64,000 bases of DNA. It comes from Gemmatimonadales bacterium. GTDB taxonomy: Bacteria > Gemmatimonadota > Gemmatimonadetes > Gemmatimonadales > GWC2-71-9. Within the stretch, counting starts at the first letter, position 1; the number at the start of each line of letters is the position of its first letter. The DNA lies in assembly GCA_048499805.1 (NCBI GenBank), contig JASNZF010000004.1:224067-288066 (forward strand). Reading direction: 5' to 3'. Below, piece after piece: positions 1-53,666 of this stretch. Position numbers and translations under genes: made by a program. The notes under the pieces were generated by a model. That model saw only the letters and a program-made list of their open reading frames with translations, was not told the origin of the DNA and searched no databases.

Positions 1-332
1 GCTACGGCTGGCGCGCGGGCAGCCCGGAGAGCTCCGGCATCGGCGGCTTCTACGACGTGCTCGGCCCGAACAACTACGTCGTGGAGAGCGGGTCGTACGC
101 CAAGCTCCGCGAGGTGAGCCTGACCTACAAGTTCGGCAAGATCGCGGGTGTCGGCGACTGGACCCTGGGCCTGGTCGGCCGGAACATCCTCAAGTTCACC
201 AACTACTCGGGCATGGATCCGGAGGTGGGTGTCAGTGGTGGCAACACGGGCTCGGGCCTGATCAACCAGACCGACAACTTCGACATGCCGCCGCTGCGGT
301 CGTTCACCTTCTCCATTTCCACGCGCTTCTAG
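1..332 (+). CDS. SusC/RagA-family TonB-dependent outer-membrane receptor, C-terminal fragment (5' end is outside the window). Identical to the C-terminus of the susC at 3624..6983.
   Basis: In-frame with ORF 57..332. The translation matches the last ~110 aa of the 1119-aa SusC and ends ...FTFSISTRF, with the terminal aromatic residue typical of TonB-dependent receptors. It lies inside the 3043-bp perfect repeat. Confidence 0.85.
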   Translation, partial: YGWRAGSPESSGIGGFYDVLGPNNYVVESGSYAKLREVSLTYKFGKIAGVGDWTLGLVGRNILKFTNYSGMDPEVGVSGGNTGSGLINQTDNFDMPPLRSFTFSISTRF

Positions 333-344
333 GAGCCATCCAGA

Positions 345-2030
345 ATGATGCGATCCATGATCCGATGCGGGGCGCTGGCCGGAGCGGTGTTGCTCGGGGC
401 CTGCGACCTCGCGGTCGAGAACCGAACCGCGCCGGACACGTCGAAGGTGCTGGCGACGCCAGCGGACGTCGAGGCGCTCCTGGGCGGGCAGTTCCTCCGC
501 CACAACTCGTCACTGTACGGCAGCACGGCGAACGTGTGGGGCATGATGAACGTCATGTCGCACGAGAACTTCAGCAGCCTGTCGAACAACTGCCAGGGCC
601 AGCGCGTGGGCATCCCGCGCGCCAGCAATGACAACGCAGTCGGCAACGGCTGCGCCAGCGAGCAGCGCCGGGTGTACTACATCGACGGCGAAGTGGTCCG
701 GGTGAGCTCGAACATCCTGGCCAAGCTCAACACCGCGGGCTTCACCCTGGGCTCCACGGCCCAGGACCAGCGGGCGCGGGCCTTCGCCAACTTCACCCGG
801 GGCGTGGCCCTGGGCTACCTGGCGATGGTCTACGACTCGGCGGCGATCATCACCCCCGAGAGCAGCACCGAGGATCCGGGCCAACTCTCCGGCTACCAGG
901 ACGTGATGACCGCGGCGCTGGCCTCGCTGGACGCCGCCATCGCGGCGGCCCAGGCGCCGGGCACCGGGACCGGGGGCTTCCCGATCCCGAACGAGTGGTT
1001 CGCCAACACCAATGGCGCGACCACGGCGGCGGAGTTCATCAAGATCGTCCGCAGCTACAAGGCCCGGTTCCGGGCCGGCGTGGCGCGGACCCCGGCCGAG
1101 CGGGCGGCGGTCAACTGGGCGGCGGTGATCGCCGATGCCCAGAACGGGATCACGCAGGACATGAACCTCCGGACCGCCACCACCGCCGGCACCCTGAGCA
1201 ACAGCTGGGTGTCCACCTGGTACAGCTACACGACCTGGCACCAGATGGTGCCGTTCATCATCGGGATGGGCGACGTCTCGGGCAACTACGAGGCGTACAT
1301 CGCGGCCCCCCTGAACGACAAGGGCAAGGACGGCGCGTTCTTCATGGTGACGCCCGACCTGCGCTGGCCGCAGGGGGCCACCCGCGCCGCCCAGCAGGCC
1401 GACTTCTCGGTCACTTCCTGCACCGCCGCCGGTTCCATCTGCAAGCGGGACTTCCGCAACCGGCCGACGGCGAACGACCAGGCCTCGGGCCCGACCTGGG
1501 GCTACTCGAACTACGACCACACCCGGTACTACGCCTGGGACAAGAGTGGCTCGGAGCCCGGTGCGACCAACAACACCGGCCCGTTCCCGTTCATGAAGAA
1601 GGCCGAGATCGACATGCTCCAGGCCGAGGGCCTGATCCGGACCGGGAGCTTCGCGGCCGCGGCGGCGCTGATCAACAACACCCGCGTCGGGCGCGGTGGC
1701 CTGCCGGCGATCACGGCGTTCGACAACACCTCGCCGGTGCCGGGCGGGGCCAACTGCGTGCCCCGGGTGCCCAATTCATCGGGCACGGCGGTGGCCTGCG
1801 GCAACATGATGGAAGCGATGAAGTGGGAAAAGCGGATGGAAACCGCCTATACGCACTTCGGCGGGTGGTTCTTTGACCACCGCGGGTGGGGTGACCTGCC
1901 CGAGGGGACCCCGACCCACTGGGCCCCGCCGTACGAGGACCTCCTGGCGCGCGGGTATGCCAAGGAGGCCGTCTACAGCCTCGGGGGTGGCCTGCCCGGC
2001 AGCGCCGCCAAGGGGACGTACGGCTGGTGA
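345..2030 (+). CDS. SusD/RagB-family nutrient-binding outer-membrane lipoprotein (copy 1, identical to 6996..8681)
   Basis: 561 aa. Signal peptide with lipobox LLGAC. Sits 12 nt downstream of the susC stop, which is the canonical susC-susD arrangement. Size and composition fit the SusD family. Confidence 0.85.
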   Translation: MMRSMIRCGALAGAVLLGACDLAVENRTAPDTSKVLATPADVEALLGGQFLRHNSSLYGSTANVWGMMNVMSHENFSSLSNNCQGQRVGIPRASNDNAVGNGCASEQRRVYYIDGEVVRVSSNILAKLNTAGFTLGSTAQDQRARAFANFTRGVALGYLAMVYDSAAIITPESSTEDPGQLSGYQDVMTAALASLDAAIAAAQAPGTGTGGFPIPNEWFANTNGATTAAEFIKIVRSYKARFRAGVARTPAERAAVNWAAVIADAQNGITQDMNLRTATTAGTLSNSWVSTWYSYTTWHQMVPFIIGMGDVSGNYEAYIAAPLNDKGKDGAFFMVTPDLRWPQGATRAAQQADFSVTSCTAAGSICKRDFRNRPTANDQASGPTWGYSNYDHTRYYAWDKSGSEPGATNNTGPFPFMKKAEIDMLQAEGLIRTGSFAAAAALINNTRVGRGGLPAITAFDNTSPVPGGANCVPRVPNSSGTAVACGNMMEAMKWEKRMETAYTHFGGWFFDHRGWGDLPEGTPTHWAPPYEDLLARGYAKEAVYSLGGGLPGSAAKGTYGW

Positions 2031-2128
2031 TCACCGCCGACGCCGCCCGCCGGTCGCGACCGGCGGGTCGGCGCCACCCGGCCGGCCGTGCAGACGGTCC
2101 TGGCCCTTCCACTTTCATGGAGTGCGTA

Positions 2129-2977
2129 ATGCGACGCCTTTTTCGACTCTCGGCATTGGCTCTGGCCCTGGGCGCTTCGACCGCCTGCCGGCCCGAGACG
2201 ATCATCGAGACTGAAGACATCCCGACGGCGGGCATCCGGTTCGTCAATGCGGTGCCCGACACCTTCGCGCTGGACTTCCGTCCGGTGGACATCGTGGAGA
2301 ACACCCACTTCTACTCGGTGGGGTTCCGCAGCACGACGCTGCTGTACTACAAGAATGCGCGGGCCGGGCAGCGGCAGTTCAAGATCTTCCTGGCCAACCC
2401 GAGCCTGACGGCGCCGGCGGCGGAACAGCAGGCCATCGCGAGCACGGTGGTGGACGAGCTGAACCTGACGCTGGAAGCGGGGAAGAACTACACGGTCATC
2501 ATCTGGGGCTACATGCGGCCGGGCTCGACGCCGGCGAAGCGGGTGACGGTGCTGGAGGACAATCCGGCGGATCCGGGGAGCCAGGTGGCGCTGCGGATCG
2601 TCAACGCGGCCGCGGACCTGGGCGCGGTGGACGGCCGGTTCTACCCGAGCACGGGCACGGCGCCGGCCTCGCCGAACTGGGCGAACGTGGCGGCCCTGAC
2701 GGCGTCGGCGTACGTGAACACGGCGCCGGGCGCGATCAAGGCGAACGTGCGGCTGGCGGGCGGGACGACGGCGCTGTTCACCGACCCGACGCTGCCGGCC
2801 GGGATTGCGGAGACGATCGACATCGACGGCGCGCCGGGCAGCACGCGGGCGGGGACGGGGATGTCGGGGTTCGTCTTCCCGCGGTCGGTGGCGGGCAGCC
2901 GGGCGACGAACTTCACCACGCCGGGGATGTTCTGGGTGTGGGATCGGCGTCCGCCGCGGACCTGCGCGCTCTGCTAG
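2129..2977 (+). CDS. DUF4397-like surface lipoprotein (copy 1). The annotated ORF starts at 2027, but the probable start is the ATG at 2129.
   Basis: The internal Met gives MRRLFRLSALALALGASTAC, a lipoprotein signal. Repeated [IL]R[FI]VNA.PD...DF/RIVNAAADLGAVD motifs are typical of DUF4397 beta-sandwich repeats. It overlaps the susD stop, consistent with a SusE/F-like accessory position. Confidence 0.5.
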   Translation: MRRLFRLSALALALGASTACRPETIIETEDIPTAGIRFVNAVPDTFALDFRPVDIVENTHFYSVGFRSTTLLYYKNARAGQRQFKIFLANPSLTAPAAEQQAIASTVVDELNLTLEAGKNYTVIIWGYMRPGSTPAKRVTVLEDNPADPGSQVALRIVNAAADLGAVDGRFYPSTGTAPASPNWANVAALTASAYVNTAPGAIKANVRLAGGTTALFTDPTLPAGIAETIDIDGAPGSTRAGTGMSGFVFPRSVAGSRATNFTTPGMFWVWDRRPPRTCALC

Positions 2978-3573
2978 GCGGGTCGGCGATCAGCCGCAGC
3001 ACCAGTCGGGCCGCCGGGCACTCGCCCGGCGGCCCGATTGGCATTCGGGGGCTCCGGAGCGGGCCGCCGACGCCCCCCTTGCTGGTCCTCCGTTCCAGTT
3101 GGCTCGTGGCCAGGCAGCGCGACCGGGGGGCTGGACGAAACCTCGCTGGGGCTGTAGGATCAAGGTTCGGCTGAGACAGAGGGTTCTGCGGGTCGTCGCC
3201 GCGCTGGTGGACGATCGTCGGGATCCGAGTGGGGTGGTATTGCTGGGCCGGTCCACGCGGCCGCCCATGCCGGCCCTGTTGTGTGTGGCAAGCGTCCTTT
3301 TGACACAGCCGTGTACCGGGCCGCGTGTCCGTTCGTCACAACCAGAATCCTTCGCGAGCACAAGTTGTTGCTGTACAGGGACTTGCAACGCCCCCATCCG
3401 GGGCATGCTCCCTGCTGTGTTGCAGGTCACCGTATTGTCTCCGCGCCGGGTGACGGGCGCTGAGGCGGCAGGTTTCGTTTCATTGTGAAGCTCACCTCGA
3501 GCCACACGTTTCCCGCCAATTGGCGAGTTCTCCATAGGTTCCAGCGTCACTACCAGGTTTCGTTCGTCCCGGC

Positions 3574-3623: not shown

Positions 3624-6600
3624 ATGACGACTTTTGAGCGTCCTCGCGCCATCCTCCGCGTGTTGCTGCCGGTGCTCGCGCTGTTCGGCTTCGCGGCCGA
3701 AGCGCACTCCCAGGCGACGTTCCGCGGCAGGGTGCTGACCGAGCGTGGCGAGCCGATTGCGGCCGCGGCGGTTGGCATTGCCGAGCTCGGCATCACGACC
3801 CAGTCCAACGCCCAGGGGGTCTATACCCTGATTGTCCCGGCGGCACGCGTCTCGGGGCAGCAGGTGACCCTGGCGGCCCGGGCGATCGGATACCGGGCCC
3901 GGTCCACGTCGATCGCGCTGGCGGCCGGCGAGCGGACCATCGACTTCACCCTCATCCAGGACATCAACAAGCTGGAAGAGGTGATCGTCACCGGCGTGAT
4001 GGAGGGCGTGGAGCGCTCCAAGGTGCCGTTCGCCGTGGGCCGTGTCACCGCGGAGGACATCCCGGTGGCGGCGGTGGACCCGGTGCGCGCCCTGCAGGGC
4101 AAGGTGGCCGGTGTCCGGATCGCCCAGACGACGGGCTATCCGGGCTCGACGCCGGAGATCCTGCTGCGCGGCCCGACGTCGATCAACGCGTCGGGGCGTG
4201 GCCAGGGCCCGCTGATCATCATCGACGATGTGATCATGAACGTCGGGGTGCTGACCGAGCTGGGCGGCATGGACATCGAGTCGATCGAGGTGGTGAAGGG
4301 CGCCGCGGGCGCGTCGCTGTACGGGACCCGGGCGGCGAACGGGGTCATCACGATCCGGACCAAGCGCGGGCTGACGGGCGGGAATGACGGGGTCCGGTTC
4401 AACGTGCGGACCGAGTACGGCTTCAACGACATGAACATCGACTACGGCATCCCGGTCAACCACCCGCTCGGTCTCGACGAGACGGGCAAGCGGTTCTGCG
4501 TGATCGTCTCCGGGACCCAGCCGTGCTCGCGCACCCTGGACATCAACCGCGAGATCATGCGCCGCAACGCGGTGGCCGCGGACACGATCCGGACCGGCCA
4601 GAGCGTCCTCTACGCGGCCCCGACCGGGACCGAGCTGCGGAACGTCTACCAGGCCAACATCTGGCCGGGCCAGTACTACAACCAGGTCGCCCAGCTGATG
4701 ACCCGTTCGCCCAGCATCCTGACCAACGTCGACGCGACGGGCCGGGTGGGCAACGTCTCCTTCTACGTCAGCGGCAACTACACCGACGAGGCCGGCGCCC
4801 TCACGGTCCTCAACGGGGTGCAGAACAAGCGGGCCCGCGTCAACCTGGACTACGACGCCCGCTCCGACCTCAAGATCTCGGTGAGCACCTTCGCCGACAA
4901 GCTCAACGACGACAACGACGGGTTCAACTTCGGCGGCCTGCTCCGGGGCATGCTCCCGGGCGTCGACCAGCTGATGCGGGACTCGCTGGGCCGCGCCCCG
5001 CTGGTGACCGGCGGCTCGGGCTACCGGCCGACCGGCAACGGCGGCGGCAACCTGGTGTACGGCCCGGAGAACAACATCGCCTACCGCGAGTCGACCCGGT
5101 TCCTGGGCAGCATCACCGCCCGGTACTTCCCGACCGACTGGGCCACCTTCGAGGCCACGGCCGGCTATGACACCCGGGCCCGCCAGGACGTGGACATCAC
5201 CCCGTCCGGCACGCGGTCGACGTCGATCTCGGCGGCGACGAACAAGGGCAACATGTCGATCAACAACTTCCACGACGAGTCGGTGAACGCGGCGCTGTCG
5301 GCCACGTTCCGGAGCCAGCTCGGCGAGGAGTTGAGCGGCAAGCTGAGCTTCCGCGGCCTGTACGACGAGAACAACTTCAACAGCGTCAACACCGCGGGCC
5401 AGGTGTTCACGGTCAAGGACATCAACACGCTGGGCAACACCACGACCAACAAGTCGAACAGCTCCAGCATCACCACGATCAAGAACGTGGGCCTGTTCGC
5501 CGGCGCGTCGCTGGACTACAAGGACCGCTACATCGTCGAGGGCTCGTTCCGGTACGACGGTTCCTCGCTGTTCGGCGCCGGCAACCGCTGGTCGCCGTTC
5601 GGGCGGATCTCGGCGGTCTGGAACGTGGCGCGCGAGCCGTTCTGGAACGTCGGGTTCATGGATGAGTTCCGGCTCCGCGCCAGCCGCGGCACCGCCGGCA
5701 CCACGCCGCCGTTCTCGGCGCAGTACGAGACCTACTCGGTCAGCGGCACCTCGGTGACGCTGGGCCAGGCGGGCAACCGGCTGATCAAGCCGGAGACCAC
5801 GACCGAGGTGGAGGTCGGCACCGACTTCACGCTGTTCGGGAAGGTCGGCTTCGAGGTGACCTACGCGCACGCCGTGACCCGGGACCAGATCCTGCCGGTC
5901 TCGACGGCGGCGTCGCTGGGCTTCTCGACCCAGTGGCAGAACGCGGGGACGCTGGACAACAAGACGATCGAGCTGGGCGTGAACCTGCCGATCGTCAACA
6001 GCAGCACCCTGTTCTGGCAGATGCGCGGGACCTGGGACCGCACCCGGACCCACATCACCGAGCTGTTCGTCCCCGACTTCATCTACTCGGGCGGCACCGG
6101 CCAGGGCACCGGCAGCTTCTTCTACATGACGGCCAACACCGAAGTGCAGAACGGCTTCCCGCTCAACCGGTACGGCAACATCTACGGCCGCGCCTTCTAC
6201 AAGACCTGCGGCGACCTGCCGGTCTCGGTCCAGCCGGACTGCGGCCCGGGCAAGGCGTACCAGCGGGACAGCAACGGGTGGGTGGTCTGGACCGGGGCGG
6301 GGAACAGCATCGGCGACGGCATCACCAAGAACCTGTGGAGCACCACGCTGCCGGCGAGCGAGTCGCCGTGGAACTACGCCCTGACCTGGGGCCACCCGAT
6401 CGTCGACCGTCCGCTGGCGGGCGAGCCGGGCGAGCGGGTGGGCAAGAACCAGATCATCGGCAACGTGTTCCCGGACTTCCGGTTCACGTTCACGAACGAC
6501 ATCCAGTACAAGAAGCTGACGCTGTACACCCTGCTCGATGCCACCATCGGGCACGAGATCAACAACCAGGGTGAGGGCTGGGGCCTGCTGGACCTGAGCT

Positions 6601-6983
6601 CCGCCTACTTCGACCAGGCCGACCAGACGGTCCAGACGGCCAAGCCGGTGGGCTACGGCTGGCGCGCGGGCAGCCCGGAGAGCTCCGGCATCGGCGGCTT
6701 CTACGACGTGCTCGGCCCGAACAACTACGTCGTGGAGAGCGGGTCGTACGCCAAGCTCCGCGAGGTGAGCCTGACCTACAAGTTCGGCAAGATCGCGGGT
6801 GTCGGCGACTGGACCCTGGGCCTGGTCGGCCGGAACATCCTCAAGTTCACCAACTACTCGGGCATGGATCCGGAGGTGGGTGTCAGTGGTGGCAACACGG
6901 GCTCGGGCCTGATCAACCAGACCGACAACTTCGACATGCCGCCGCTGCGGTCGTTCACCTTCTCCATTTCCACGCGCTTCTAG
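3624..6983 (+). CDS. SusC/RagA-family TonB-dependent outer-membrane receptor (full length, 1119 aa)
   Basis: Signal peptide. N-terminal carboxypeptidase-regulatory-like domain (FRGRVLTERGEPIAAAAVGIAELGITTQSNAQGVYTL). TonB box/plug (EEVIVTGV...IESIEVVKGAAGASLYGTRAANGVITIRTKRG). Long beta-barrel ending in ...STRF. It is followed 12 nt later by susD. Confidence 0.95.
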   Translation: MTTFERPRAILRVLLPVLALFGFAAEAHSQATFRGRVLTERGEPIAAAAVGIAELGITTQSNAQGVYTLIVPAARVSGQQVTLAARAIGYRARSTSIALAAGERTIDFTLIQDINKLEEVIVTGVMEGVERSKVPFAVGRVTAEDIPVAAVDPVRALQGKVAGVRIAQTTGYPGSTPEILLRGPTSINASGRGQGPLIIIDDVIMNVGVLTELGGMDIESIEVVKGAAGASLYGTRAANGVITIRTKRGLTGGNDGVRFNVRTEYGFNDMNIDYGIPVNHPLGLDETGKRFCVIVSGTQPCSRTLDINREIMRRNAVAADTIRTGQSVLYAAPTGTELRNVYQANIWPGQYYNQVAQLMTRSPSILTNVDATGRVGNVSFYVSGNYTDEAGALTVLNGVQNKRARVNLDYDARSDLKISVSTFADKLNDDNDGFNFGGLLRGMLPGVDQLMRDSLGRAPLVTGGSGYRPTGNGGGNLVYGPENNIAYRESTRFLGSITARYFPTDWATFEATAGYDTRARQDVDITPSGTRSTSISAATNKGNMSINNFHDESVNAALSATFRSQLGEELSGKLSFRGLYDENNFNSVNTAGQVFTVKDINTLGNTTTNKSNSSSITTIKNVGLFAGASLDYKDRYIVEGSFRYDGSSLFGAGNRWSPFGRISAVWNVAREPFWNVGFMDEFRLRASRGTAGTTPPFSAQYETYSVSGTSVTLGQAGNRLIKPETTTEVEVGTDFTLFGKVGFEVTYAHAVTRDQILPVSTAASLGFSTQWQNAGTLDNKTIELGVNLPIVNSSTLFWQMRGTWDRTRTHITELFVPDFIYSGGTGQGTGSFFYMTANTEVQNGFPLNRYGNIYGRAFYKTCGDLPVSVQPDCGPGKAYQRDSNGWVVWTGAGNSIGDGITKNLWSTTLPASESPWNYALTWGHPIVDRPLAGEPGERVGKNQIIGNVFPDFRFTFTNDIQYKKLTLYTLLDATIGHEINNQGEGWGLLDLSSAYFDQADQTVQTAKPVGYGWRAGSPESSGIGGFYDVLGPNNYVVESGSYAKLREVSLTYKFGKIAGVGDWTLGLVGRNILKFTNYSGMDPEVGVSGGNTGSGLINQTDNFDMPPLRSFTFSISTRF

Positions 6984-6995
6984 GAGCCATCCAGA

Positions 6996-8681
6996 ATGAT
7001 GCGATCCATGATCCGATGCGGGGCGCTGGCCGGAGCGGTGTTGCTCGGGGCCTGCGACCTCGCGGTCGAGAACCGAACCGCGCCGGACACGTCGAAGGTG
7101 CTGGCGACGCCAGCGGACGTCGAGGCGCTCCTGGGCGGGCAGTTCCTCCGCCACAACTCGTCACTGTACGGCAGCACGGCGAACGTGTGGGGCATGATGA
7201 ACGTCATGTCGCACGAGAACTTCAGCAGCCTGTCGAACAACTGCCAGGGCCAGCGCGTGGGCATCCCGCGCGCCAGCAATGACAACGCAGTCGGCAACGG
7301 CTGCGCCAGCGAGCAGCGCCGGGTGTACTACATCGACGGCGAAGTGGTCCGGGTGAGCTCGAACATCCTGGCCAAGCTCAACACCGCGGGCTTCACCCTG
7401 GGCTCCACGGCCCAGGACCAGCGGGCGCGGGCCTTCGCCAACTTCACCCGGGGCGTGGCCCTGGGCTACCTGGCGATGGTCTACGACTCGGCGGCGATCA
7501 TCACCCCCGAGAGCAGCACCGAGGATCCGGGCCAACTCTCCGGCTACCAGGACGTGATGACCGCGGCGCTGGCCTCGCTGGACGCCGCCATCGCGGCGGC
7601 CCAGGCGCCGGGCACCGGGACCGGGGGCTTCCCGATCCCGAACGAGTGGTTCGCCAACACCAATGGCGCGACCACGGCGGCGGAGTTCATCAAGATCGTC
7701 CGCAGCTACAAGGCCCGGTTCCGGGCCGGCGTGGCGCGGACCCCGGCCGAGCGGGCGGCGGTCAACTGGGCGGCGGTGATCGCCGATGCCCAGAACGGGA
7801 TCACGCAGGACATGAACCTCCGGACCGCCACCACCGCCGGCACCCTGAGCAACAGCTGGGTGTCCACCTGGTACAGCTACACGACCTGGCACCAGATGGT
7901 GCCGTTCATCATCGGGATGGGCGACGTCTCGGGCAACTACGAGGCGTACATCGCGGCCCCCCTGAACGACAAGGGCAAGGACGGCGCGTTCTTCATGGTG
8001 ACGCCCGACCTGCGCTGGCCGCAGGGGGCCACCCGCGCCGCCCAGCAGGCCGACTTCTCGGTCACTTCCTGCACCGCCGCCGGTTCCATCTGCAAGCGGG
8101 ACTTCCGCAACCGGCCGACGGCGAACGACCAGGCCTCGGGCCCGACCTGGGGCTACTCGAACTACGACCACACCCGGTACTACGCCTGGGACAAGAGTGG
8201 CTCGGAGCCCGGTGCGACCAACAACACCGGCCCGTTCCCGTTCATGAAGAAGGCCGAGATCGACATGCTCCAGGCCGAGGGCCTGATCCGGACCGGGAGC
8301 TTCGCGGCCGCGGCGGCGCTGATCAACAACACCCGCGTCGGGCGCGGTGGCCTGCCGGCGATCACGGCGTTCGACAACACCTCGCCGGTGCCGGGCGGGG
8401 CCAACTGCGTGCCCCGGGTGCCCAATTCATCGGGCACGGCGGTGGCCTGCGGCAACATGATGGAAGCGATGAAGTGGGAAAAGCGGATGGAAACCGCCTA
8501 TACGCACTTCGGCGGGTGGTTCTTTGACCACCGCGGGTGGGGTGACCTGCCCGAGGGGACCCCGACCCACTGGGCCCCGCCGTACGAGGACCTCCTGGCG
8601 CGCGGGTATGCCAAGGAGGCCGTCTACAGCCTCGGGGGTGGCCTGCCCGGCAGCGCCGCCAAGGGGACGTACGGCTGGTGA
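6996..8681 (+). CDS. SusD/RagB-family nutrient-binding outer-membrane lipoprotein (copy 2)
   Basis: Identical to 345..2030. Lipobox LLGAC. Immediately downstream of the full-length susC. Confidence 0.9.
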   Translation: MMRSMIRCGALAGAVLLGACDLAVENRTAPDTSKVLATPADVEALLGGQFLRHNSSLYGSTANVWGMMNVMSHENFSSLSNNCQGQRVGIPRASNDNAVGNGCASEQRRVYYIDGEVVRVSSNILAKLNTAGFTLGSTAQDQRARAFANFTRGVALGYLAMVYDSAAIITPESSTEDPGQLSGYQDVMTAALASLDAAIAAAQAPGTGTGGFPIPNEWFANTNGATTAAEFIKIVRSYKARFRAGVARTPAERAAVNWAAVIADAQNGITQDMNLRTATTAGTLSNSWVSTWYSYTTWHQMVPFIIGMGDVSGNYEAYIAAPLNDKGKDGAFFMVTPDLRWPQGATRAAQQADFSVTSCTAAGSICKRDFRNRPTANDQASGPTWGYSNYDHTRYYAWDKSGSEPGATNNTGPFPFMKKAEIDMLQAEGLIRTGSFAAAAALINNTRVGRGGLPAITAFDNTSPVPGGANCVPRVPNSSGTAVACGNMMEAMKWEKRMETAYTHFGGWFFDHRGWGDLPEGTPTHWAPPYEDLLARGYAKEAVYSLGGGLPGSAAKGTYGW

Positions 8682-8779
8682 TCACCGCCGACGCCGCCCG
8701 CCGGTCGCGACCGGCGGGTCGGCGCCACCCGGCCGGCCGTGCAGACGGTCCTGGCCCTTCCACTTTCATGGAGTGCGTA

Positions 8780-9628
8780 ATGCGACGCCTTTTTCGACTC
8801 TCGGCATTGGCTCTGGCCCTGGGCGCTTCGACCGCCTGCCGGCCCGAGACGATCATCGAGACTGAAGACATCCCGACGGCGGGCATCCGGTTCGTCAATG
8901 CGGTGCCCGACACCTTCGCGCTGGACTTCCGTCCGGTGGACATCGTGGAGAACACCCACTTCTACTCGGTGGGGTTCCGCAGCACGACGCTGCTGTACTA
9001 CAAGAATGCGCGGGCCGGGCAGCGGCAGTTCAAGATCTTCCTGGCCAACCCGAGCCTGACGGCGCCGGCGGCGGAACAGCAGGCCATCGCGAGCACGGTG
9101 GTGGACGAGCTGAACCTGACGCTGGAAGCGGGGAAGAACTACACGGTCATCATCTGGGGCTACATGCGGCCGGGCTCGACGCCGGCGAAGCGGGTGACGG
9201 TGCTGGAGGACAATCCGGCGGATCCGGGGAGCCAGGTGGCGCTGCGGATCGTCAACGCGGCCGCGGACCTGGGCGCGGTGGACGGCCGGTTCTACCCGAG
9301 CACGGGCACGGCGCCGGCCTCGCCGAACTGGGCGAACGTGGCGGCCCTGACGGCGTCGGCGTACGTGAACACGGCGCCGGGCGCGATCAAGGCGAACGTG
9401 CGGCTGGCGGGCGGGACGACGGCGCTGTTCACCGACCCGACGCTGCCGGCCGGGATTGCGGAGACGATCGACATCGACGGCGCGCCGGGCAGCACGCGGG
9501 CGGGGACGGGGATGTCGGGGTTCGTCTTCCCGCGGTCGGTGGCGGGCAGCCGGGCGACGAACTTCACCACGCCGGGGATGTTCTGGGTGTGGGATCGGCG
9601 TCCGCCGCGGACCTGCGCGCTCTGCTAG
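8780..9628 (+). CDS. DUF4397-like surface lipoprotein (copy 2)
   Basis: Identical to 2129..2977. Confidence 0.5.
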   Translation: MRRLFRLSALALALGASTACRPETIIETEDIPTAGIRFVNAVPDTFALDFRPVDIVENTHFYSVGFRSTTLLYYKNARAGQRQFKIFLANPSLTAPAAEQQAIASTVVDELNLTLEAGKNYTVIIWGYMRPGSTPAKRVTVLEDNPADPGSQVALRIVNAAADLGAVDGRFYPSTGTAPASPNWANVAALTASAYVNTAPGAIKANVRLAGGTTALFTDPTLPAGIAETIDIDGAPGSTRAGTGMSGFVFPRSVAGSRATNFTTPGMFWVWDRRPPRTCALC

Positions 9629-9789
9629 GCGGGTCGGCGATCAGCCGCAGCACCAGTCGGGCCGCCGGGCACTCGCCCGGCGGCCCGATTGGCGCTCAGG
9701 CCCCTGCAGGCGCAGTGCCGGCCGTCCCGCGCTCCACGCCGCGAGCTGGAACGACCGGACTCCCCACGGCGGCGACAAAGGAGTCGTCC

Positions 9790-10287
9790 ATGTCCCTGCT
9801 TCGCAAACTGGCGAAGTCGGTTCCCCTGGCGCTGGGCATCATCACCCTCGGGGCGCTCCAGGCGACCGCCCAGGACTCGCCCGCGGCTCCGGAGCCCAGC
9901 CGTGACCTGATCGTTCGTGCCGAGCTGGTGAAGGTGGCCGCCCGGTCGCCGGACCTGCTCCGGGCGGTGCGCAGCCTCCGGTCGCACATGGTGGACACGA
10001 CCCGGGGGTCCAGTCGGGGGGTGCGCTCGATGGACGTTGAGGCCCCGGGCAGGACGGCCACCGGGGCCTCGGGCGGGGTGGGGGCCACCCGCAACACCCC
10101 GGCCCCGACCCCGATCCTGTACGTGGACGGGAAGCGCATCGGGCACCTGACCCTGATGCAGGACATCCTGACGGCAGAGGTGGAGGAGGTGAAATACCTC
10201 AACCCGAACCGCGCGGCAGGGGAGCTGGGCCTGGGACACGAGGGTGGGGCCATCATGGTCAAGATGCATCGACCATCCGCACCCTAG
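9790..10287 (+). CDS. Small secreted protein resembling a stand-alone TonB-dependent-receptor plug domain (165 aa from the internal ATG at 9790)
   Basis: Signal peptide MSLLRKLAKSVPLALGIITLGALQATAQ. The segment ...LLRAVRSLRSHMV...PILYVDGKRIGH...AEVEEVKYLNPNRAAGELGLGHEGGAIMVKMHRP has the same order of motifs as the SusC plug in this window (..VRALQGKVAGVRI..PLIIIDDV..IESIEVVKGAAGASLYGTRAANGVITIRTK). A paralog follows at 10443. Confidence 0.45.
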   Translation: MSLLRKLAKSVPLALGIITLGALQATAQDSPAAPEPSRDLIVRAELVKVAARSPDLLRAVRSLRSHMVDTTRGSSRGVRSMDVEAPGRTATGASGGVGATRNTPAPTPILYVDGKRIGHLTLMQDILTAEVEEVKYLNPNRAAGELGLGHEGGAIMVKMHRPSAP

Positions 10288-10442
10288 CCGAGACGACCGC
10301 ACAGGGGGCGTCCCGGTGGGGTCAGCAGGTACCCCGGTGAAACGATTTGTCCAAGCCGGGCGTCCATCCCTTAGTGGGGACGGTCGGGGCGGGAAGGGAC
10401 TCGATGCCGGGATGACCTGAGAACGCCCAGGGAGGGATCCGA

Positions 10443-10865
10443 ATGCAGACCCGATGGTTGTGGACGACGGCGGTACTGGTTGTCACCCTTGGACCGACAC
10501 TGGCGGCCCAGGAGGAGCCGCGGCGACAGGCCCGCGACCGGGACGTGATCAGCCGGGCGGAGCTGGTGGAGTCGGCCCAGAAGAACCAGGACCTGCTCAA
10601 GGCGGTCAAGAGTCTCCGTTCGCACTTTCTTCGGCCCCCTCCCGGGGTCCGGAGCATGACGGGGAATCGGGTCGCCCCGATCCAGCTCTACGTGGATGGC
10701 ATCCGGCAGGCGGAAGTCGAGTCGCTGGTGCTGATCCAGACCATCGACGCAGAGGAAGTCCGCTATCTCGATCCGGGGAAGGCCCAGGATCTCTACGGCA
10801 TCACCCACAACGGCGGCGCGATCCAGGTCAAGCTGTACAAGGGGCCCAAGCCCACCCCGCCGTGA
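10443..10865 (+). CDS. Paralog of 9790..10287: small secreted plug-domain-like protein (140 aa)
   Basis: Signal peptide with AAQ cleavage. Shares RAELVxxAxxxxDLLKAVKSLRSH...IQLYVDGIRQ...AEEVRYLDPGKAQDLYGITHNGGAIQVKLYKGP with the neighbouring ORF at roughly 40% identity. Confidence 0.45.
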   Translation: MQTRWLWTTAVLVVTLGPTLAAQEEPRRQARDRDVISRAELVESAQKNQDLLKAVKSLRSHFLRPPPGVRSMTGNRVAPIQLYVDGIRQAEVESLVLIQTIDAEEVRYLDPGKAQDLYGITHNGGAIQVKLYKGPKPTPP

Positions 10866-10936
10866 CAGGTGGAGGGGACGCAAGCGGGGGTGCACCGACA
10901 TTGCCGTGCCCCCGCCTGAGTTGTTAATTCCGCAGG

Positions 10937-12019
10937 ATGAGCGCCCCCGCGGCCGTGCGGTCCACGCCGGCCATCCTGACCCCCGCCGTCGACCTGCTGT
11001 GCGTGGGCGGACTGTCCCTCCTGGTCCTCGTCCCCCTCCTCGTGAGCGGGATCGACCATCTTGGCTTCATTACGATTGGCGTGCTGGCCTGGGCGCAGGC
11101 GCTGCTGAACTACACCCACTTCATGGCCTCGTACCGGATCGTCTACCGCAGCCGGGAGATGATCCTGCGCCACAAGTGGGCCTCGATCGGCATTCCCGCC
11201 ATCCTGGGCGGCGCCATGGTCGCCGCCCTGCTCGAGGCGCAGGCCGGCGGGAGGATCCTGCTCACGGTGTTCTTCGCCGTGGCGAGCGGCTACCTGGCCT
11301 GGCACTACACCGGCCAGGTGTGGGGAATGATGGCCTCCTATGCCCATCTCGAAGGGGTCCCGTTCGATCGTGGTGAACGGCTGCTGGTCCGGACCGGGCT
11401 GCGGATCCTGCTGGCGTGGCACGTCCTCTGGTTCCTGAAGACCGCGCTGCAGGACCCGGGCCCCGTGGCGGCCCTCTTTCCGGTGGTCAGCGCCGGGGCG
11501 GTCCTGGCACTGGCGCTGGGTGCCGTGGGCCTCTGGAAGCTGCGGATGCGGACGGGCCGGGTGCCCCCTGGACGGGTGCTGGTGCCGTGGCTCGCGATCT
11601 TCGTCTGGTACGCGGCGCTGGCTCGGTGGGGGCTCCCGGCCCTCTTCCTGGTGCAGGCGTTCCATGCGCTCCAGTACCTGGAGTTCCCGGTGCGGGTGGA
11701 GCTCAACCGGGCGATGCGAGATGCGCCCGGACGCACCGTGGGAAGGATGACCGCGTACACCGTGGTGCTGCTCCTGGCCGCCATTGCCGCCATGCTTGTG
11801 GTGCCCGGCCCCGCGATGAGCGTCGTGGCCGACCTCCTTGGCGCCGGCCGGGAGACCCTGGTGCCGGTCCTGGTGATGTACATCATCAACATCCACCACT
11901 ACTTCACCGACGGTGTGGTCTGGAAGATCAGCAACCCGGAGGTGCGGCGCGAGCTCTTTGCGCACCTCGTCCCAGCCCCCCCGGGGCCCGGGGTCGCGAG
12001 GATCCCGAAGCGCCGGTAG
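10937..12019 (+). CDS. Polytopic integral membrane protein of unknown family (360 aa, about 8 TM segments)
   Basis: Long ORF with multiple hydrophobic helices. Conserved-looking HHYFTDGVVWK motif near the C-terminus. No family recognised. Confidence 0.5.
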   Translation: MSAPAAVRSTPAILTPAVDLLCVGGLSLLVLVPLLVSGIDHLGFITIGVLAWAQALLNYTHFMASYRIVYRSREMILRHKWASIGIPAILGGAMVAALLEAQAGGRILLTVFFAVASGYLAWHYTGQVWGMMASYAHLEGVPFDRGERLLVRTGLRILLAWHVLWFLKTALQDPGPVAALFPVVSAGAVLALALGAVGLWKLRMRTGRVPPGRVLVPWLAIFVWYAALARWGLPALFLVQAFHALQYLEFPVRVELNRAMRDAPGRTVGRMTAYTVVLLLAAIAAMLVVPGPAMSVVADLLGAGRETLVPVLVMYIINIHHYFTDGVVWKISNPEVRRELFAHLVPAPPGPGVARIPKRR

Positions 12020-12163
12020 CGGTGGTAGACGAACCCCCGCCGCGGCCCGATGACGGAGCCATGACGACCCAGGGAATGCCCGGGGCCTCCTGCTGCTGAG
12101 TGGCGGAGAAGAGACTAGATTGCCGAGGTGGTCCCTCCATTTTCACCAGACGTGAGGTGCCCG

Positions 12164-13603
12164 ATGTCCCCCCGCTTCCGGTCATTGCTCGTGGTGCAGG
12201 TCGCGCTGCTGCTCGGCGGATGTGCCCGCACGCCAGACACCGATCCCCGCATGGTATCCGAGTGGATGCACACCCTGTACGGCGTGGTGCGCAGCGAGCG
12301 CATCGGCCCTCCCGTGGCCTCGCGCCTGCTGGGCTATCTCTCGATCGCCTTGTACGAGGGCATGGCCAGTGCCACCCCGGGGATGCCCACGCTGGCGGGG
12401 GCAGTCAACGGCATCTCCGCCCTTCCCGCCGCCGACCCCGCGCAGCGGTATGATGCCACCCTGGTGGCGGTCGAGGCGGAGCGCGCCGCGCTGGACTCGT
12501 TCATGGTGGCCGCGCTGCCCTCGACTCGGGCCACGCTGGGCCGGTTGGCCGACTCGCTCATCGCCGCTCGTACCGACCTGGGGATCGACCCGGCCGTGGT
12601 GGAGCGCTCCCTCGCGCTCGGGCGGCAGATCGGCGCCGCCGTCGTGGCGGCCTCGCGGAGCGACGGCTTCGCGGAGACACGAGGGCGTCCCTACGCGCCG
12701 CCGGCCGGTCCGGGGCTCTGGTACAACGATGCGCCGGGCGCGCTCTACTCAGCCCAGAGCGTCTCGGGGGTGACCGATTTCGTCGGGCTCGACAATCCCG
12801 CCAACACGATGCGGGCCGGCGCCGCGAGTGATCGTGGCCTGGTGCTGGACCGCCCCAAGGATCCCAATGCCACACTCCCGGCCCTGAACATCGCCGGCGT
12901 CACGGAGCCCTTCTGGCGCGAGATCCGCCCCTTCTTCCTGCGCACCTGGAATGAATGCACCATCGCCGACCCGCCGGCCTACTCCACCGACACCGCGTCG
13001 GCGATGTACCGCGACGCCCGCGAGGTGTACGACATCAAGGCGGCGCTGACCCCGGAGCAGCACACCATCGCGCTCTACTGGGCGGACAATCCGGGGGAGA
13101 CGGGGACGCCCGCGGGGCACTGGATCGCCATCGCCAGCCAGATGATCAGCGAGCGGCGGCTCTCGGCCCCCGAGGCGGCCCGGCTCTTCGTGGCGACGGC
13201 GACCGCGCAGTCCGATGCCTTCGTGGCCGCCTGGGGATACAAGTTCGAGTACAACCTGATCCGGCCCCGCGCCTACATTCGCCGCGTGATCGACCCCACC
13301 TGGGAGCCCGACATCCCGACCCCGCCGTTTCCCGAGTATCCGGCCGGGCATTCCACCCAGTCCACCGCCGCCGCCGGGGTCGCAGCGGCCCTCCTCGGCG
13401 ACACCCCGTTTGCCGACAGCACGAGTGTCAGCATCGGCCACGCCGTCCGGGAGTTTCCCTCGTTCAGTGCCGCCGCCGATGAGGCGGGGATGTCCCGGCT
13501 ATATGGGGGCATCCACTTCCGGGCCGGCAACGAGGCGGGCCGGGTCCTTGGCCGCTGCATCGCCGAGCGCGTCATGGAACGTCTGCCCTCCACGACGCAG
13601 TGA
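12164..13603 (+). CDS. PAP2-superfamily vanadium-haloperoxidase/acid-phosphatase-like lipoprotein
   Basis: Lipoprotein signal MSPRFRSLLVVQVALLLGGC (the ORF track starts at 12128; 12164 is the internal Met). PAP2/vanadium-haloperoxidase motifs are present: YNLIRPR (KxxxxxxRP-like), PEYPAGHS (PSGH) and SRLYGGIHFRAGNEAG (SRxxxxxHxxxD-like). Confidence 0.7.
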   Translation: MSPRFRSLLVVQVALLLGGCARTPDTDPRMVSEWMHTLYGVVRSERIGPPVASRLLGYLSIALYEGMASATPGMPTLAGAVNGISALPAADPAQRYDATLVAVEAERAALDSFMVAALPSTRATLGRLADSLIAARTDLGIDPAVVERSLALGRQIGAAVVAASRSDGFAETRGRPYAPPAGPGLWYNDAPGALYSAQSVSGVTDFVGLDNPANTMRAGAASDRGLVLDRPKDPNATLPALNIAGVTEPFWREIRPFFLRTWNECTIADPPAYSTDTASAMYRDAREVYDIKAALTPEQHTIALYWADNPGETGTPAGHWIAIASQMISERRLSAPEAARLFVATATAQSDAFVAAWGYKFEYNLIRPRAYIRRVIDPTWEPDIPTPPFPEYPAGHSTQSTAAAGVAAALLGDTPFADSTSVSIGHAVREFPSFSAAADEAGMSRLYGGIHFRAGNEAGRVLGRCIAERVMERLPSTTQ

Positions 13604-16600
13604 GGGCCCTCGGGCGGGGTGGTCGGCGGCTGGGGTTCGGGCTGGTCCTTGTTTGGGCGGGCGCGTGCACCACCCAGGCCGGTCCCGCCGAGTGGCACGA
13701 GGCGCCGGGATACCGGTGGAGTGAGCTGCGGGTGCCAAAGGGGACCGCAGGGTTCACCGCGATGTCGGGATCCCGGCTGGGCATCGACTTCCAGAACACC
13801 GTCAGCGACAGCGTGCTGGTGGGGAACCGGATGCTGGCCCAGGGGGCCGGTACCTGCCTGGGCGACGTGGACGGTGACGGGCTGGTGGACCTCTTCCTGG
13901 CCCGGACCGAGGGCGCCAACGCGCTCTACCGCAACCTCGGTGACTGGCGTTTCGAGGAGGTGGCCGCCTCCGCCGGGGTCCAGGCCGCTGACCGATTCTC
14001 GACCGGGTGTGCCCTGGCCGACGTCGAGGGTGATGGCGACCTGGACCTGGTGCTCCTCGCGACCCTCGGTCCCAACGCCATCTTCCTCAACGATGGCACG
14101 GGGCGGTTCACCGAGCACGGCGCCGATCTTGGCCTGGACGTGACCGGCCGTGGGGGCACCACAATCGCCCTGGCCGACGTGGACGGCAACGGCACCCTCG
14201 ACCTGTACACCGCCAACTACAAGCCGTACAGCCCGGTCGACATCATCTCGCCGCAACAGCGCGCGCCGAACCAGATTGTCCAGCAGACCGGTCCCACCAC
14301 CTACGAGGTGGTTCCGGAGCACCGGCAGGACTTCAAGCTGGTGATGCGGCCGGACATGGGCGGGCTCAACCTGACCATGCGGGCCGAGCCCGATGCCTTC
14401 TACCTGAACTCGGGGGGGCGCTTCACGGCGGTGCCGATGCCCACCGACCGGTTCCGCGCCGCCGACGGGCGACCCCTTGACCCCGCTCCCGAGTCCTTTG
14501 CCCTGGGCGCCCGGTTTGCGGACCTCAATGGCGATGGCGCCCCGGATCTGTACGTCGCCAACGACTTCGAGGATCCCGACCTCTTCTGGCTCAACGATGG
14601 CCAGGGGAACTTCCGGCTGGCGGACTGGCGGGTGCAGCGGCAGATGAGCAACTCCACGATGGGCACCGACGTGGGGGACATCAACGCCGACGGCCTGCCC
14701 GACCTGTTCATGACGGACATGCTCGGCGACGACAGCCGCCGGGTCAAGACCCAGATGCCCACCCATTCGCCCCAGCCCAAGCGCCCCGGCGACGCGACGA
14801 CCCAGCTCCAGTTGCAGCGCAACACGCTCTTCCTCAACCAGGGAGACGGCAGCTTCACCGAGATCTCCACCCTGGCAGGTGTCGCGGCGAGTGGCTGGTC
14901 ATGGGGCACGATGTTCCTGGACGTGGACCTCGACGGCTGGCAGGACCTGCTGGTTGCCACGGGGCACCCGTGGGACGTGATGGACGCCGACACCCAGGAG
15001 CGGCTCCAGAACCGCCTCACCGATGTCCCCTGGCAGCGCCAGCGATGGGAGTATCCCGCGCTCCCGCTCCCCAACCGGGCCTTCCGCAACCGCGGCGACC
15101 TGACCTTCGAGGATGCCGGAGGGGACTGGGGATTCGGCACGGAGGCGGACATTTCCCACGGGATGGCCGTTGGGGACCTCGATGGCGATGGCGACCTGGA
15201 TGTCGTGATCAATCGGCTCGGGGCCCCAGCGCTGGTCCTCCGCAACAACGCTCCGGCGCCCCGCGTGGCGGTCCGCCTGGTCGGCGATGCCCCGAACACC
15301 CGCGCGGTCGGTGCGCGGATCACGGTGCGGGGAGGCGCCAGCCCGATCCAGCGGCACGAAGTGACGGCTGGGGGCCTGTACCTCTCGCACAGCGACTACC
15401 TGGCCAGCTTCGCGACCGGTGCCGCCGACAGCGTGACGATCACCGTGGACTGGCGCGATGGCCGCCGCACGGTAATCACCGACGCACGGCCGAACCGCCT
15501 GTATGAGATCACCACCGCCACCGCCACGCTGCCGACCAACCCGGACTCGGCGCCTCCTCCGGCGCTCTTCGCCGATGCGAGCGCGCTGCTGGGTGGCCAT
15601 CAGCACTCCGAGCAGCCGTATGACGACTGGGCGCGCCAGTTCCTGCTGCCCAACGCCCTCTCGCAGGGTGGGCCCGGGGTGGCATGGTTCGATTTGGACC
15701 GGGACGGCGATGAGGACCTGGTGGTTGGGGCAGGGCAGGGTGGACGCCTCACGACTTTCCTGAACCAGAACGGGCGGTTCATCCTCCAGGCCGGCCCCAC
15801 CGCGCCGGCAGACCTGACGACGGTCCTGGGCCAGGCCACCGGCGGTGGAACGCGGCTGCTGCTCGGGCTCTCCAACTGGGAGGCGCGTGCACCCGAGCTG
15901 GTCATGGAGTCACCGGCTGCCCTCAGTGTCTCGTTCACCAGTGGCCGGATGGCCGCCTCCGCGAGCCCGCTCATCCCGCCACGATCCTCGGCCACCGGGC
16001 CGATGGCGCTGGGGGATTATTCCGGCGACGGGGTCCTCGACCTCTTTGTTGGCGGCCGAGCGCTGCCCGGTCGGTATCCCGCCCCGGCCTCCTCGATGCT
16101 CTTCCGTGGCGCGGCCGGCGGCTTCGTCCCCGACTCCGCGGCCGCGCCCGACCTGGCGGAAATCGGGCTGGTGACGGCGGCGAGTTTTGCCGACATCGAT
16201 GGCGATGGCGATGCCGATCTCATCCTGGCGCGCGAGTGGGGCACCCTGGTGCTGCTCCTCAACGAGGGTGGCCGGTATGTCCGGGCTCCCGAAACCTGGG
16301 GACTGGCCCGGTGGTCGAGTCGCTGGAATGGCGTGGCCACGGGGGACCTGGATGGTGATGGCCGCCTGGACCTGGTGGCCACCAGTTGGGGCCGCAACGT
16401 GCTCCTGGCCGCCGACTCCATCGCTCCGCTGGTCCTGGCCTATGGCCGCTTCGGGCGCACCGGACAGATCGAGATGATCCCCGCGCGAGACGACCCCCGG
16501 GTGGGTGGGCTCGCGCCCCTCTCCAGCTACGCCCGCGTCCGGGTCGGGTTCCCCGACCTGGCCAATCGCATCCGGAGTTTTGGCGCCTACGCCGATGCCA

Positions 16601-17292
16601 CGCTGGCCGAGGTGCTCGGCCCCGTCGCGGCGAGTGTCCAGCAGCTCGAGGCCAACACCATGGACCAGATGGTCTTCCTGAACCGGGGCGACCATTTCGT
16701 GGCGCTGGCGATGCCCAGGGAAGCCCAGTTCGCGCCTGCCTCCCACGCCAGCGTCGCCGATTTCGACGGCGACGGCAGGGAGGACGTGTTCCTGAGCCAG
16801 AACTTCTTTCCCACCCAGGTTGGGGCGCCCCGGTACGATGCCGGGCGCGGCCTCCTGCTGCTGGGTGACGGACAGGGCGGCCTGGTGGCGCTCTCCGCGG
16901 GCCGCTCCGGCATCGCGGTCCTCGGGGACCAGCGCGGCGCCGCCCACGCCGACTTCGATGGGGACGGCCGGCTGGACCTCGTCGTGACGCAGAATGCGGC
17001 CGAGACGCGGCTGTTCCGGAACCAGGCCGCGATTCCCGGGCTGCGGGTCCGGCTGGTGGGTCCGGCCGGAAACCCGGACGGCATTGGTGCCCAGGTGCGG
17101 CTGGTCTTTGGGGACGTCATGGGGCCGGTGCGCGAGGTGCAGGCGGGTTCGGGGTACTGGTCGCAGAATGGCGCGGTGCAGGTCTTCGGGGTGCCGACAC
17201 CCCCGTCGACGGTCTGGGTACGCTGGCCCGGGGGGGCCGAGACCCGCACGCCGGTTCCCCCGGGGGCGGTCGAGGTGGTGGTGCGACCCTGA
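13600..17292 (+). CDS. CRTAC1-family protein with FG-GAP/VCBS repeats and two ASPIC/UnbV domains (1230 aa), lipoprotein
   Basis: Signal LVLVWAGAC. Many xDxDGDGxxDL motifs (VGDVDGDGLVDLFLA, LADVEGDGDLDLVLL, LADVDGNGTLDLY and others). Two ASPIC/UnbV-like segments (RVAVRLVGDAPNTRAVGARITVRGG...HEVTAGGLYLSHSD; RVRLVGPAGNPDGIGAQVRLVFGD...VQAGSGYWSQNGAVQVFG). Confidence 0.8.
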   Translation: MRALGRGGRRLGFGLVLVWAGACTTQAGPAEWHEAPGYRWSELRVPKGTAGFTAMSGSRLGIDFQNTVSDSVLVGNRMLAQGAGTCLGDVDGDGLVDLFLARTEGANALYRNLGDWRFEEVAASAGVQAADRFSTGCALADVEGDGDLDLVLLATLGPNAIFLNDGTGRFTEHGADLGLDVTGRGGTTIALADVDGNGTLDLYTANYKPYSPVDIISPQQRAPNQIVQQTGPTTYEVVPEHRQDFKLVMRPDMGGLNLTMRAEPDAFYLNSGGRFTAVPMPTDRFRAADGRPLDPAPESFALGARFADLNGDGAPDLYVANDFEDPDLFWLNDGQGNFRLADWRVQRQMSNSTMGTDVGDINADGLPDLFMTDMLGDDSRRVKTQMPTHSPQPKRPGDATTQLQLQRNTLFLNQGDGSFTEISTLAGVAASGWSWGTMFLDVDLDGWQDLLVATGHPWDVMDADTQERLQNRLTDVPWQRQRWEYPALPLPNRAFRNRGDLTFEDAGGDWGFGTEADISHGMAVGDLDGDGDLDVVINRLGAPALVLRNNAPAPRVAVRLVGDAPNTRAVGARITVRGGASPIQRHEVTAGGLYLSHSDYLASFATGAADSVTITVDWRDGRRTVITDARPNRLYEITTATATLPTNPDSAPPPALFADASALLGGHQHSEQPYDDWARQFLLPNALSQGGPGVAWFDLDRDGDEDLVVGAGQGGRLTTFLNQNGRFILQAGPTAPADLTTVLGQATGGGTRLLLGLSNWEARAPELVMESPAALSVSFTSGRMAASASPLIPPRSSATGPMALGDYSGDGVLDLFVGGRALPGRYPAPASSMLFRGAAGGFVPDSAAAPDLAEIGLVTAASFADIDGDGDADLILAREWGTLVLLLNEGGRYVRAPETWGLARWSSRWNGVATGDLDGDGRLDLVATSWGRNVLLAADSIAPLVLAYGRFGRTGQIEMIPARDDPRVGGLAPLSSYARVRVGFPDLANRIRSFGAYADATLAEVLGPVAASVQQLEANTMDQMVFLNRGDHFVALAMPREAQFAPASHASVADFDGDGREDVFLSQNFFPTQVGAPRYDAGRGLLLLGDGQGGLVALSAGRSGIAVLGDQRGAAHADFDGDGRLDLVVTQNAAETRLFRNQAAIPGLRVRLVGPAGNPDGIGAQVRLVFGDVMGPVREVQAGSGYWSQNGAVQVFGVPTPPSTVWVRWPGGAETRTPVPPGAVEVVVRP

Positions 17293-53515: not shown

Positions 53516-53666
53516 CTGCCGTAGGCCTGGCGCGGGGGGGGGGCGTGGCGTGGTTCGGCTGGCCTTGCGGGGGGTCGGGCCGGGCGGTAGCCTCCTCGTG
53601 CGATTCGGCCGGCTCCCAGTCGCCGCCCCGCCATCGTTCCGCGCACCTGCCCCAGGGAACTCGCCC

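Follow-up and report, generated by a model that had tools for sequence, protein, structure and literature searches.

The Plug domain of TonB-dependent receptors is usually regarded as inseparable from the receptor barrel into which it is inserted and inside which its loops bind ligand. Plugs without a barrel have been obtained in the laboratory, as in the truncated N-domain of FepA (Usher et al., 2001, as cited in PMC11658791) and the FhuA cork. Here we describe two natural genes for plug-like proteins without a barrel, found in a 64,000-nucleotide (nt) stretch of DNA from a Gemmatimonadales bacterium (contig JASNZF010000004.1, positions 224,067 to 288,066 of the forward strand; hereafter 'the window', within which positions are counted from the first letter). 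The two adjacent open reading frames (ORFs), ORF1 (9790..10287) and ORF2 (10443..10865), lie on the forward strand downstream of a SusC/SusD locus and very probably encode conserved, exported, plug-fold proteins that have neither barrel nor TonB box and are tied to the SusCD-type operon.

The receptor Plug (PF07715), as found in SusC/RagA, BtuB, FepA/PfeA and FhuA, has the same motif order as the two proteins, and alignment to its 107-position profile runs end to end. ORF1 and ORF2 differ from it in being separate exported polypeptides rather than the N-terminus of a 22-strand barrel, in having no TonB box, in the replacement across their family of the 'PGV' motif by a near-invariant L-R-(S/P)-H, and in a similarity so low that both miss the Pfam threshold. 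Whereas the isolated FepA and FhuA plugs are laboratory truncations, ORF1 and ORF2 are natural conserved genes whose products are predicted by AlphaFold2 (AF2) to be compact, with a predicted local distance difference test (pLDDT) score above 90 in the core. The N-terminal region of SusC-type transporters (a CarboxypepD_reg 'NTE', a TonB box and a plug) is mirrored by multi-domain relatives of the two proteins (P0143, P0201, P0085 and a 447-amino-acid (aa) protein in locus L011); these relatives differ from it in having no barrel, and ORF1 and ORF2 in having no CarboxypepD_reg. What is known is the Plug domain itself; what is new is a free-standing exported Plug family.

Coding evidence and relation to the Plug domain

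ORF1 encodes 165 aa and ORF2 140 aa, stop codons being counted in the coordinates. Because the genome has a guanine-cytosine (GC) content of 69%, the value found for the window, third-position GC of 0.89 in ORF1 and 0.86 in ORF2 is what is expected of coding sequence; the antisense ORFs that overlap them reach about 0.70. Shine-Dalgarno-like motifs stand 7-8 nt before each ATG (AAAGGAG for ORF1, GGGAGGG for ORF2). Both N-termini, read by eye, are of the Sec type: the n-region is basic, the h-region hydrophobic and the cleavage site of the AxA type. The ORF1 signal peptide MSLLRKLAKSVPLALGIITLGALQATA (9790..9870, forward strand) is predicted to be cut after ATA and before QD, and that of ORF2, MQTRWLWTTAVLVVTLGPTLAA (10443..10508, forward strand), between LAA and QE; localisation is accordingly given here as a sequence prediction. 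After cleavage, both proteins are predicted to be small (13-15 kDa) and hydrophilic, to contain no cysteine and to be basic, with about 138 aa and an isoelectric point (pI) of 9.7 for ORF1 and about 118 aa and a pI of 9.3 for ORF2.

The two proteins share 39% identity across 152 columns (BLASTP, E=1e-25). Their chief difference is a Gly/Ser/Thr/Ala/Pro-rich insertion of about 25-35 residues between 'GVRSM' and 'LYVDG' (10000..10104, forward strand), which marks the 'long' ORF1 type and is absent from the 'short' ORF2 type in both the pairwise and the family alignment. ORF1 residues 71-100 have pLDDT values of 55-61, so that the insertion is predicted to be disordered. The initial annotation, made from the letters and their ORFs, had described two ORFs with signal peptides at these positions, about 40% identical to each other and carrying ordered plug motifs. 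Coordinates, stops, n/h/c regions and cleavage sites all check, the identity agrees, and the motifs are present as conserved columns of the family alignment: in ORF2 numbering R33, I36, E40, L58, R59, G68, R70 and Y83, followed by E105, V106, G119, H122, G124-G125-A126 and V129.

Homology to the Plug domain is established from family-level profiles and from fold. As single sequences, ORF2 matches Plug below the Pfam threshold and ORF1 does not match it. More specifically, ORF2 residues 28-125 align to positions 4-106 of the 107 in PF07715 with 18.4 bits (E=0.0031), under the gathering threshold of 23.9 bits, and ORF1 had no match to PF07715 in the same kind of scan; an NCBIfam scan matched neither protein. 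Among 64 diverse family members, 10 match PF07715 at E<0.01; the best member, P0088, is over the cut-off (32 bits, E=1.9e-7), and P0008 has a precomputed PF07715 match.

Profiles were made from a narrow family alignment (A1) and from a broader, diverse one (A2). The narrow A1 profile had no match among PDB sequences, and its hhalign comparison with the single SusC plug sequence was not significant (E=0.14). The broad A2 profile, searched against all PDB sequences, gave 27 matches (E 1e-3 to 0.2 for those in plug regions), 25 of which are TonB-dependent transporters, all matched in the plug region. When the broader family alignment was set against the plug of three SusC orthologues, hhalign returned a probability of 83% (E=8.7e-6), and the family profile also matched the SusC plug of locus L004 (E=2.6e-4). 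The plug assignment of the initial annotation thus stands for family-level profiles and falls short for the single-sequence Pfam scan.

Structure prediction agrees with that assignment. The AF2 models of the two proteins, with mean pLDDT of 81.8 and 78.7, show helices on the flanks of a core of mixed beta-sheet and can be superposed on receptor plugs, and the top 50 of the Foldseek matches listed are all TonB-dependent transporters. In comparison with the plug of the neighbouring SusC, RDVISRAEL corresponds to VGRVTAEDI in the first strand and GGAIQVKLYK to NGVITIRTKR in the last. Counterparts of the SusC-type plug motifs TEE, IRG, LIDG and GGxI are kept, and the Arg that corresponds to that of IRG is invariant. 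Identity to this adjacent plug is about 19%, and ORF1 and ORF2 are therefore not recent copies of it. Taken together, profiles and predicted fold identify both proteins as barrel-less homologues of the TonB-dependent-receptor Plug domain.

Neither protein matches PF00593 or TIGR04056, and there is neither room nor barrel-like sequence downstream of either gene: 155 nt separate ORF1 from ORF2, and 71 nt separate ORF2 from the next gene. The absence of a beta-barrel, claimed at the outset, is thereby upheld. By inspection, the mature proteins have no TonB box, whereas the neighbouring SusC has LEEVIVTG before its first plug strand.

ORF1 and ORF2 are genuine genes under purifying selection. The ratio of non-synonymous to synonymous substitution rates (dN/dS) is 0.15-0.23 in comparisons with unsaturated dS, and the ORF2 protein is 100% identical to that of one strain at a dS of 0.15, with 0 non-synonymous changes. 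The close homologues (n=29) are all 139-178 aa long and end at equivalent positions. Domain homology taken alone would also fit pseudogene remnants, that is, 5' fragments of disrupted receptor genes; no full-length receptor orthologue of which ORF1 and ORF2 could be the 5' remnants was found. Such an origin, which we consider next to incredible, is refuted by stops at equivalent positions in dozens of homologues, by hundreds of clusters of short homologues, by selection, by the downstream sequence and by the low identity to the SusC plug. The view that these are maintained genes rather than fresh fragments is confirmed by the dN/dS values and by the shortness of nearly all homologues.

Size, range and architecture of the family

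In a full HMMER scan of 1.84 billion cluster representatives, 2925 matched at E<=1e-3; with clusters defined at 50% identity, the family holds at least 609 clusters at the stricter threshold of E<=1e-10. Nearly all of the top 150 matches are 100-200 aa long. In a species-representative genome collection, 17 of the 18 confirmed loci are named Gemmatimonadota, Gemmatimonadales, Gemmatimonadaceae or Gemmatimonas, so that every named one belongs to Gemmatimonadota; because the genome scan used A1 and two peptide patterns, this Gemmatimonadota-only range is a lower bound. A genome may hold several members, as in assemblies JBGPLG01 and CAYNNS01 with two loci each. No Pfam or NCBIfam model matches ORF1 or ORF2 above its cut-off, and the sole source-given name among the retrieved homologues is 'hypothetical protein'. 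Literature searches on stand-alone plug proteins, on Gemmatimonadota SusC/SusD and on DUF4397 turned up no account of this plug-like family. The family thus appears to be large, uncurated and restricted to Gemmatimonadota.

In a regular-expression survey, 190 of 202 collected members carry an export signal, either a hydrophobic Sec-type N-terminus (146) or a lipobox (44), and lipoproteins make up about 22% of the family. The N-terminal region is variable in sequence and hydrophobic throughout in the alignments. By these signals the family is predicted to be exported, its members being either soluble or lipid-anchored.

Multi-domain relatives combine plug-like domains with other modules. P0143 (258 aa) joins a CarboxypepD_reg to a plug-like domain, and the 447-aa protein in L011 has two CarboxypepD_reg domains as well as a plug-like one. 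In P0201 (L032:8001-9587) and P0085, a CarboxypepD_reg is followed by a TonB-box-like motif (LEAVVVEG or LREVVVAG), then by a domain of about 250 aa of no known family; a linker rich in proline and the plug-like part, made of one domain or two, complete the protein. No barrel was found in any of these four relatives.

The SusC/SusD cassette and its conservation

Upstream of the plug-like genes, the window holds a complete SusC/RagA-type TonB-dependent transporter (3624..6983; TIGR04056 2.8e-121), with an N-terminal CarboxypepD_reg, a TonB box, its own Plug and a barrel. It is followed by a SusD-like lipoprotein (6996..8681), which has a weak Pfam match and whose position directly 3' of SusC is kept in all orthologous loci, and by a DUF4397 lipoprotein (8780..9628; PF14344 3.8e-18), whose gene in every case directly precedes the one or two plug-like genes. 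Next after ORF2 comes TM360 (10937..12019), a multi-pass membrane protein of no known family, which also comes after the plug-like genes in most of the orthologous loci; all four genes are on the forward strand. A promoter/terminator scan of 8600-12200 and an Rfam scan across the whole window gave no match.

The conserved order is SusC, SusD, a small lipoprotein (124-159 aa), the DUF4397 lipoprotein and then one or two plug-like genes. It is present in L001-L006, L014-L019 and L021, and persists down to about 38-48% protein identity. The adjacency to SusC/SusD on which the initial annotation had remarked is therefore conserved across genomes. A single plug-like copy is found in L001-L003, L014, L015, L017, L019 and L021, and two copies in the window, L004-L010, L016 and L018. 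The usual followers are TM360, a PAP2/vanadium-haloperoxidase-like protein and a large FG-GAP/ASPIC-UnbV protein.

A neighbour-joining tree places the first-position (long) and second-position (short) genes in separate clades common to distant genomes; because it was made from unevenly trimmed sequences, we take it as rough support for the 'a' and 'b' orthologue groups. Separate long and short clades imply that the gene was duplicated long ago, that copies were then lost in particular lineages and that L018 had a duplication of its own. From this topology, ORF1 and ORF2 are judged to be old tandem paralogues.

Several further features of the region were recorded. The DUF4397 protein is a lipoprotein (MRRLFRLSALALALGASTAC) and ends in ..WDRRPPRTC-x-x-C, a motif also seen in its L001 and L004 orthologues. 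TM360 had no match in Pfam, NCBIfam or PDB sequences; it carries conserved His/Tyr motifs (HFMASYR, AWHYTGQ, FHALQYLEF and IHHYFTDG) and is also found near a distant plug-like paralogue in L022. The PAP2/vanadium-chloroperoxidase-like gene (12128..13603) and the large FG-GAP/ASPIC-UnbV gene (13600..17292) are conserved in those orthologous loci that are long enough to show the region. The locus looks unlike a classic glycan-utilisation locus, and these two neighbouring genes may offer a clue to what it imports.

The window also contains a perfect (100%) direct repeat, 1..3042 and 6652..9693, with a spacing of 6651 base pairs (bp). It doubles the C-terminal part of SusC, SusD and DUF4397 in tandem, and 97 nt lie between its end and ORF1. 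In other samples, short-read contigs begin inside its right end (106 nt in L007, 31 nt in L008), and the repeat edge looks like a real branch point that breaks assemblies and not an artefact of this assembly alone. Relative to a 97.5%-identical strain (L005), the window is without 407 bp (L005:3975-4381), and the two sides of the junction (around 8697..8704) overlap by 8 bp. This deletion removes the gene for the 159-aa small lipoprotein, which all other orthologous loci have between SusD and DUF4397, and it occurs in both repeat copies (other junction around 2046..2053). Elsewhere in the window, 53550..56939 was considered as a second SusC and rejected on its domains: its 1129-aa product joins a Ser/Thr protein kinase to a PAP2 phosphatase-like membrane domain and to a periplasmic binding domain of the phosphonate type.

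Possible roles of the free plugs

The reading we favour, and hold to be reasonably probable, is that ORF1 and ORF2 are autonomous periplasmic plug-fold partners of the SusCD uptake system. We hypothesize that Sec export would deliver these small, basic, hydrophilic proteins to the periplasm, some of their relatives being lipid-anchored, and that a free plug domain would act there on the periplasmic side of the SusC/SusD uptake route. It might bind the imported ligand, through the same loops that plugs use for ligand inside receptors, or attach to SusC at the mouth that opens to the periplasm. More tentatively, cargo could be passed on toward the inner-membrane protein encoded next (TM360), a specific hand-off that we regard as possible only. 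A ligand-binding role is proposed because plug loops bind ligand inside receptors and because the isolated FepA plug kept weak binding. For the latter, a value of about 5 uM is quoted (Usher et al., 2001, as cited in PMC11658791). From the predicted export, the fold and the operon context we infer that the proteins reside in the periplasm, fold on their own and have a partner or hand-off role.

A number of observations weigh against this reading. The isolated FepA plug is described as behaving like an unfolded protein in vitro (as reported in PMC11658791), so that autonomous folding of ORF1 and ORF2 is not a given, and AF2 confidence may partly reflect learned receptor structures. L001-L003 and L014 carry the ORF2 type only, which makes ORF1 dispensable there, and TM360 is missing from its position or displaced in L004, L015 and L021. 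Distant members adjoin peptidase, amidase/amidohydrolase, NPP phosphodiesterase and HEAT-cyclophilin genes with no receptor nearby. Finally, both the location and any binding of ligand are predictions from sequence and context.

The neighbours of these distant members bear on a different explanation, in which the family would be a general envelope module unrelated to transport (a scaffold, chaperone or regulator for exported hydrolases) and the place after SusCD would be one context of many. In L024, L028 and L031 the plug-like gene is preceded by one for a HEAT-repeat cyclophilin, and in L030 an M28 peptidase comes after it. L023 and L025 have an NPP-type phosphodiesterase ahead of their plug-like genes (two matches each), and L029 has in that place an ORF that resembles the L025 NPP in size. 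Amidase genes and amidohydrolase/M20 peptidase clusters occur beside other distant paralogues, and no receptor gene was found near any of them in the fetched loci. Because of this, the family as a whole may have a role that does not depend on a TonB-dependent transporter, and such recurrence beside exported-type enzymes, together with the very large family and the several members per genome, would suit an envelope module. For the genes of the window, however, the orthologue group keeps its exact place after SusC, SusD and DUF4397 down to about 38% identity; a position kept across such deep divergence argues for a functional tie to the cassette and is hard to explain otherwise. We consider the envelope module somewhat unlikely here.

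Two further explanations keep the proteins close to the receptor. They could work as plugs in trans, each inserting into or capping a transporter barrel (SusC with its own plug displaced, or a plug-less barrel elsewhere) and gating its pore. The proteins cover the whole SusC-type plug core, with the motif counterparts and invariant Arg described above, their mature forms are basic (pI 9.3-9.7), and Braun and colleagues are said to have found in 2003 that separately exported FhuA cork and barrel reassemble in vivo. However, the neighbouring SusC has its own plug, neither the window nor any of the fetched loci yielded a barrel without one, receptors are absent from the neighbourhood of many paralogues, and the 22% of members that are lipoproteins would be tethered; we therefore judge gating in trans to be improbable. 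The idea put forward in the initial annotation, that the free plugs are TonB decoys or regulators competing with receptors for TonB, draws on homology to a TonB-coupled domain and on the operon position. Against it, the mature proteins begin with QDSPAAPEPSRD.. and QEEPRRQARDRD.., about 10-13 charged or proline-rich residues that lead straight into the first plug strand, and the N-terminal residues are unconserved in the family except for R-D-R-D. Because there is no TonB box such as that of SusC, the decoy idea is not supported, and we think it very improbable.

The periplasmic partner role thus remains the one we prefer for the genes of the window. A bolder and rather unlikely extension would be that the plug can exist as an autonomously folding, free exported protein and that Gemmatimonadota hold a whole family of these. 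Its members might be relics of, or a model for, an ancestral free plug from before fusion to the barrel, or trans-acting partners that dock in or under barrels or shuttle cargo; the relatives with CarboxypepD_reg and a TonB-box-like motif would then be soluble proteins pulled by TonB.

To our knowledge, the envelope biology of Gemmatimonadota is almost unstudied. The family merits a curated profile of its own, since current profiles miss it. A natural family of barrel-less plugs would offer a tractable system for the autonomy of the plug fold, a handle on the origin of the plug-plus-barrel architecture and a candidate for a new component, located in the periplasm, of SusCD-type uptake in Gemmatimonadota. 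It is of value chiefly as a case in which plug autonomy and evolution can be tested, and as a component of Gemmatimonadota uptake loci that had gone unrecognised.
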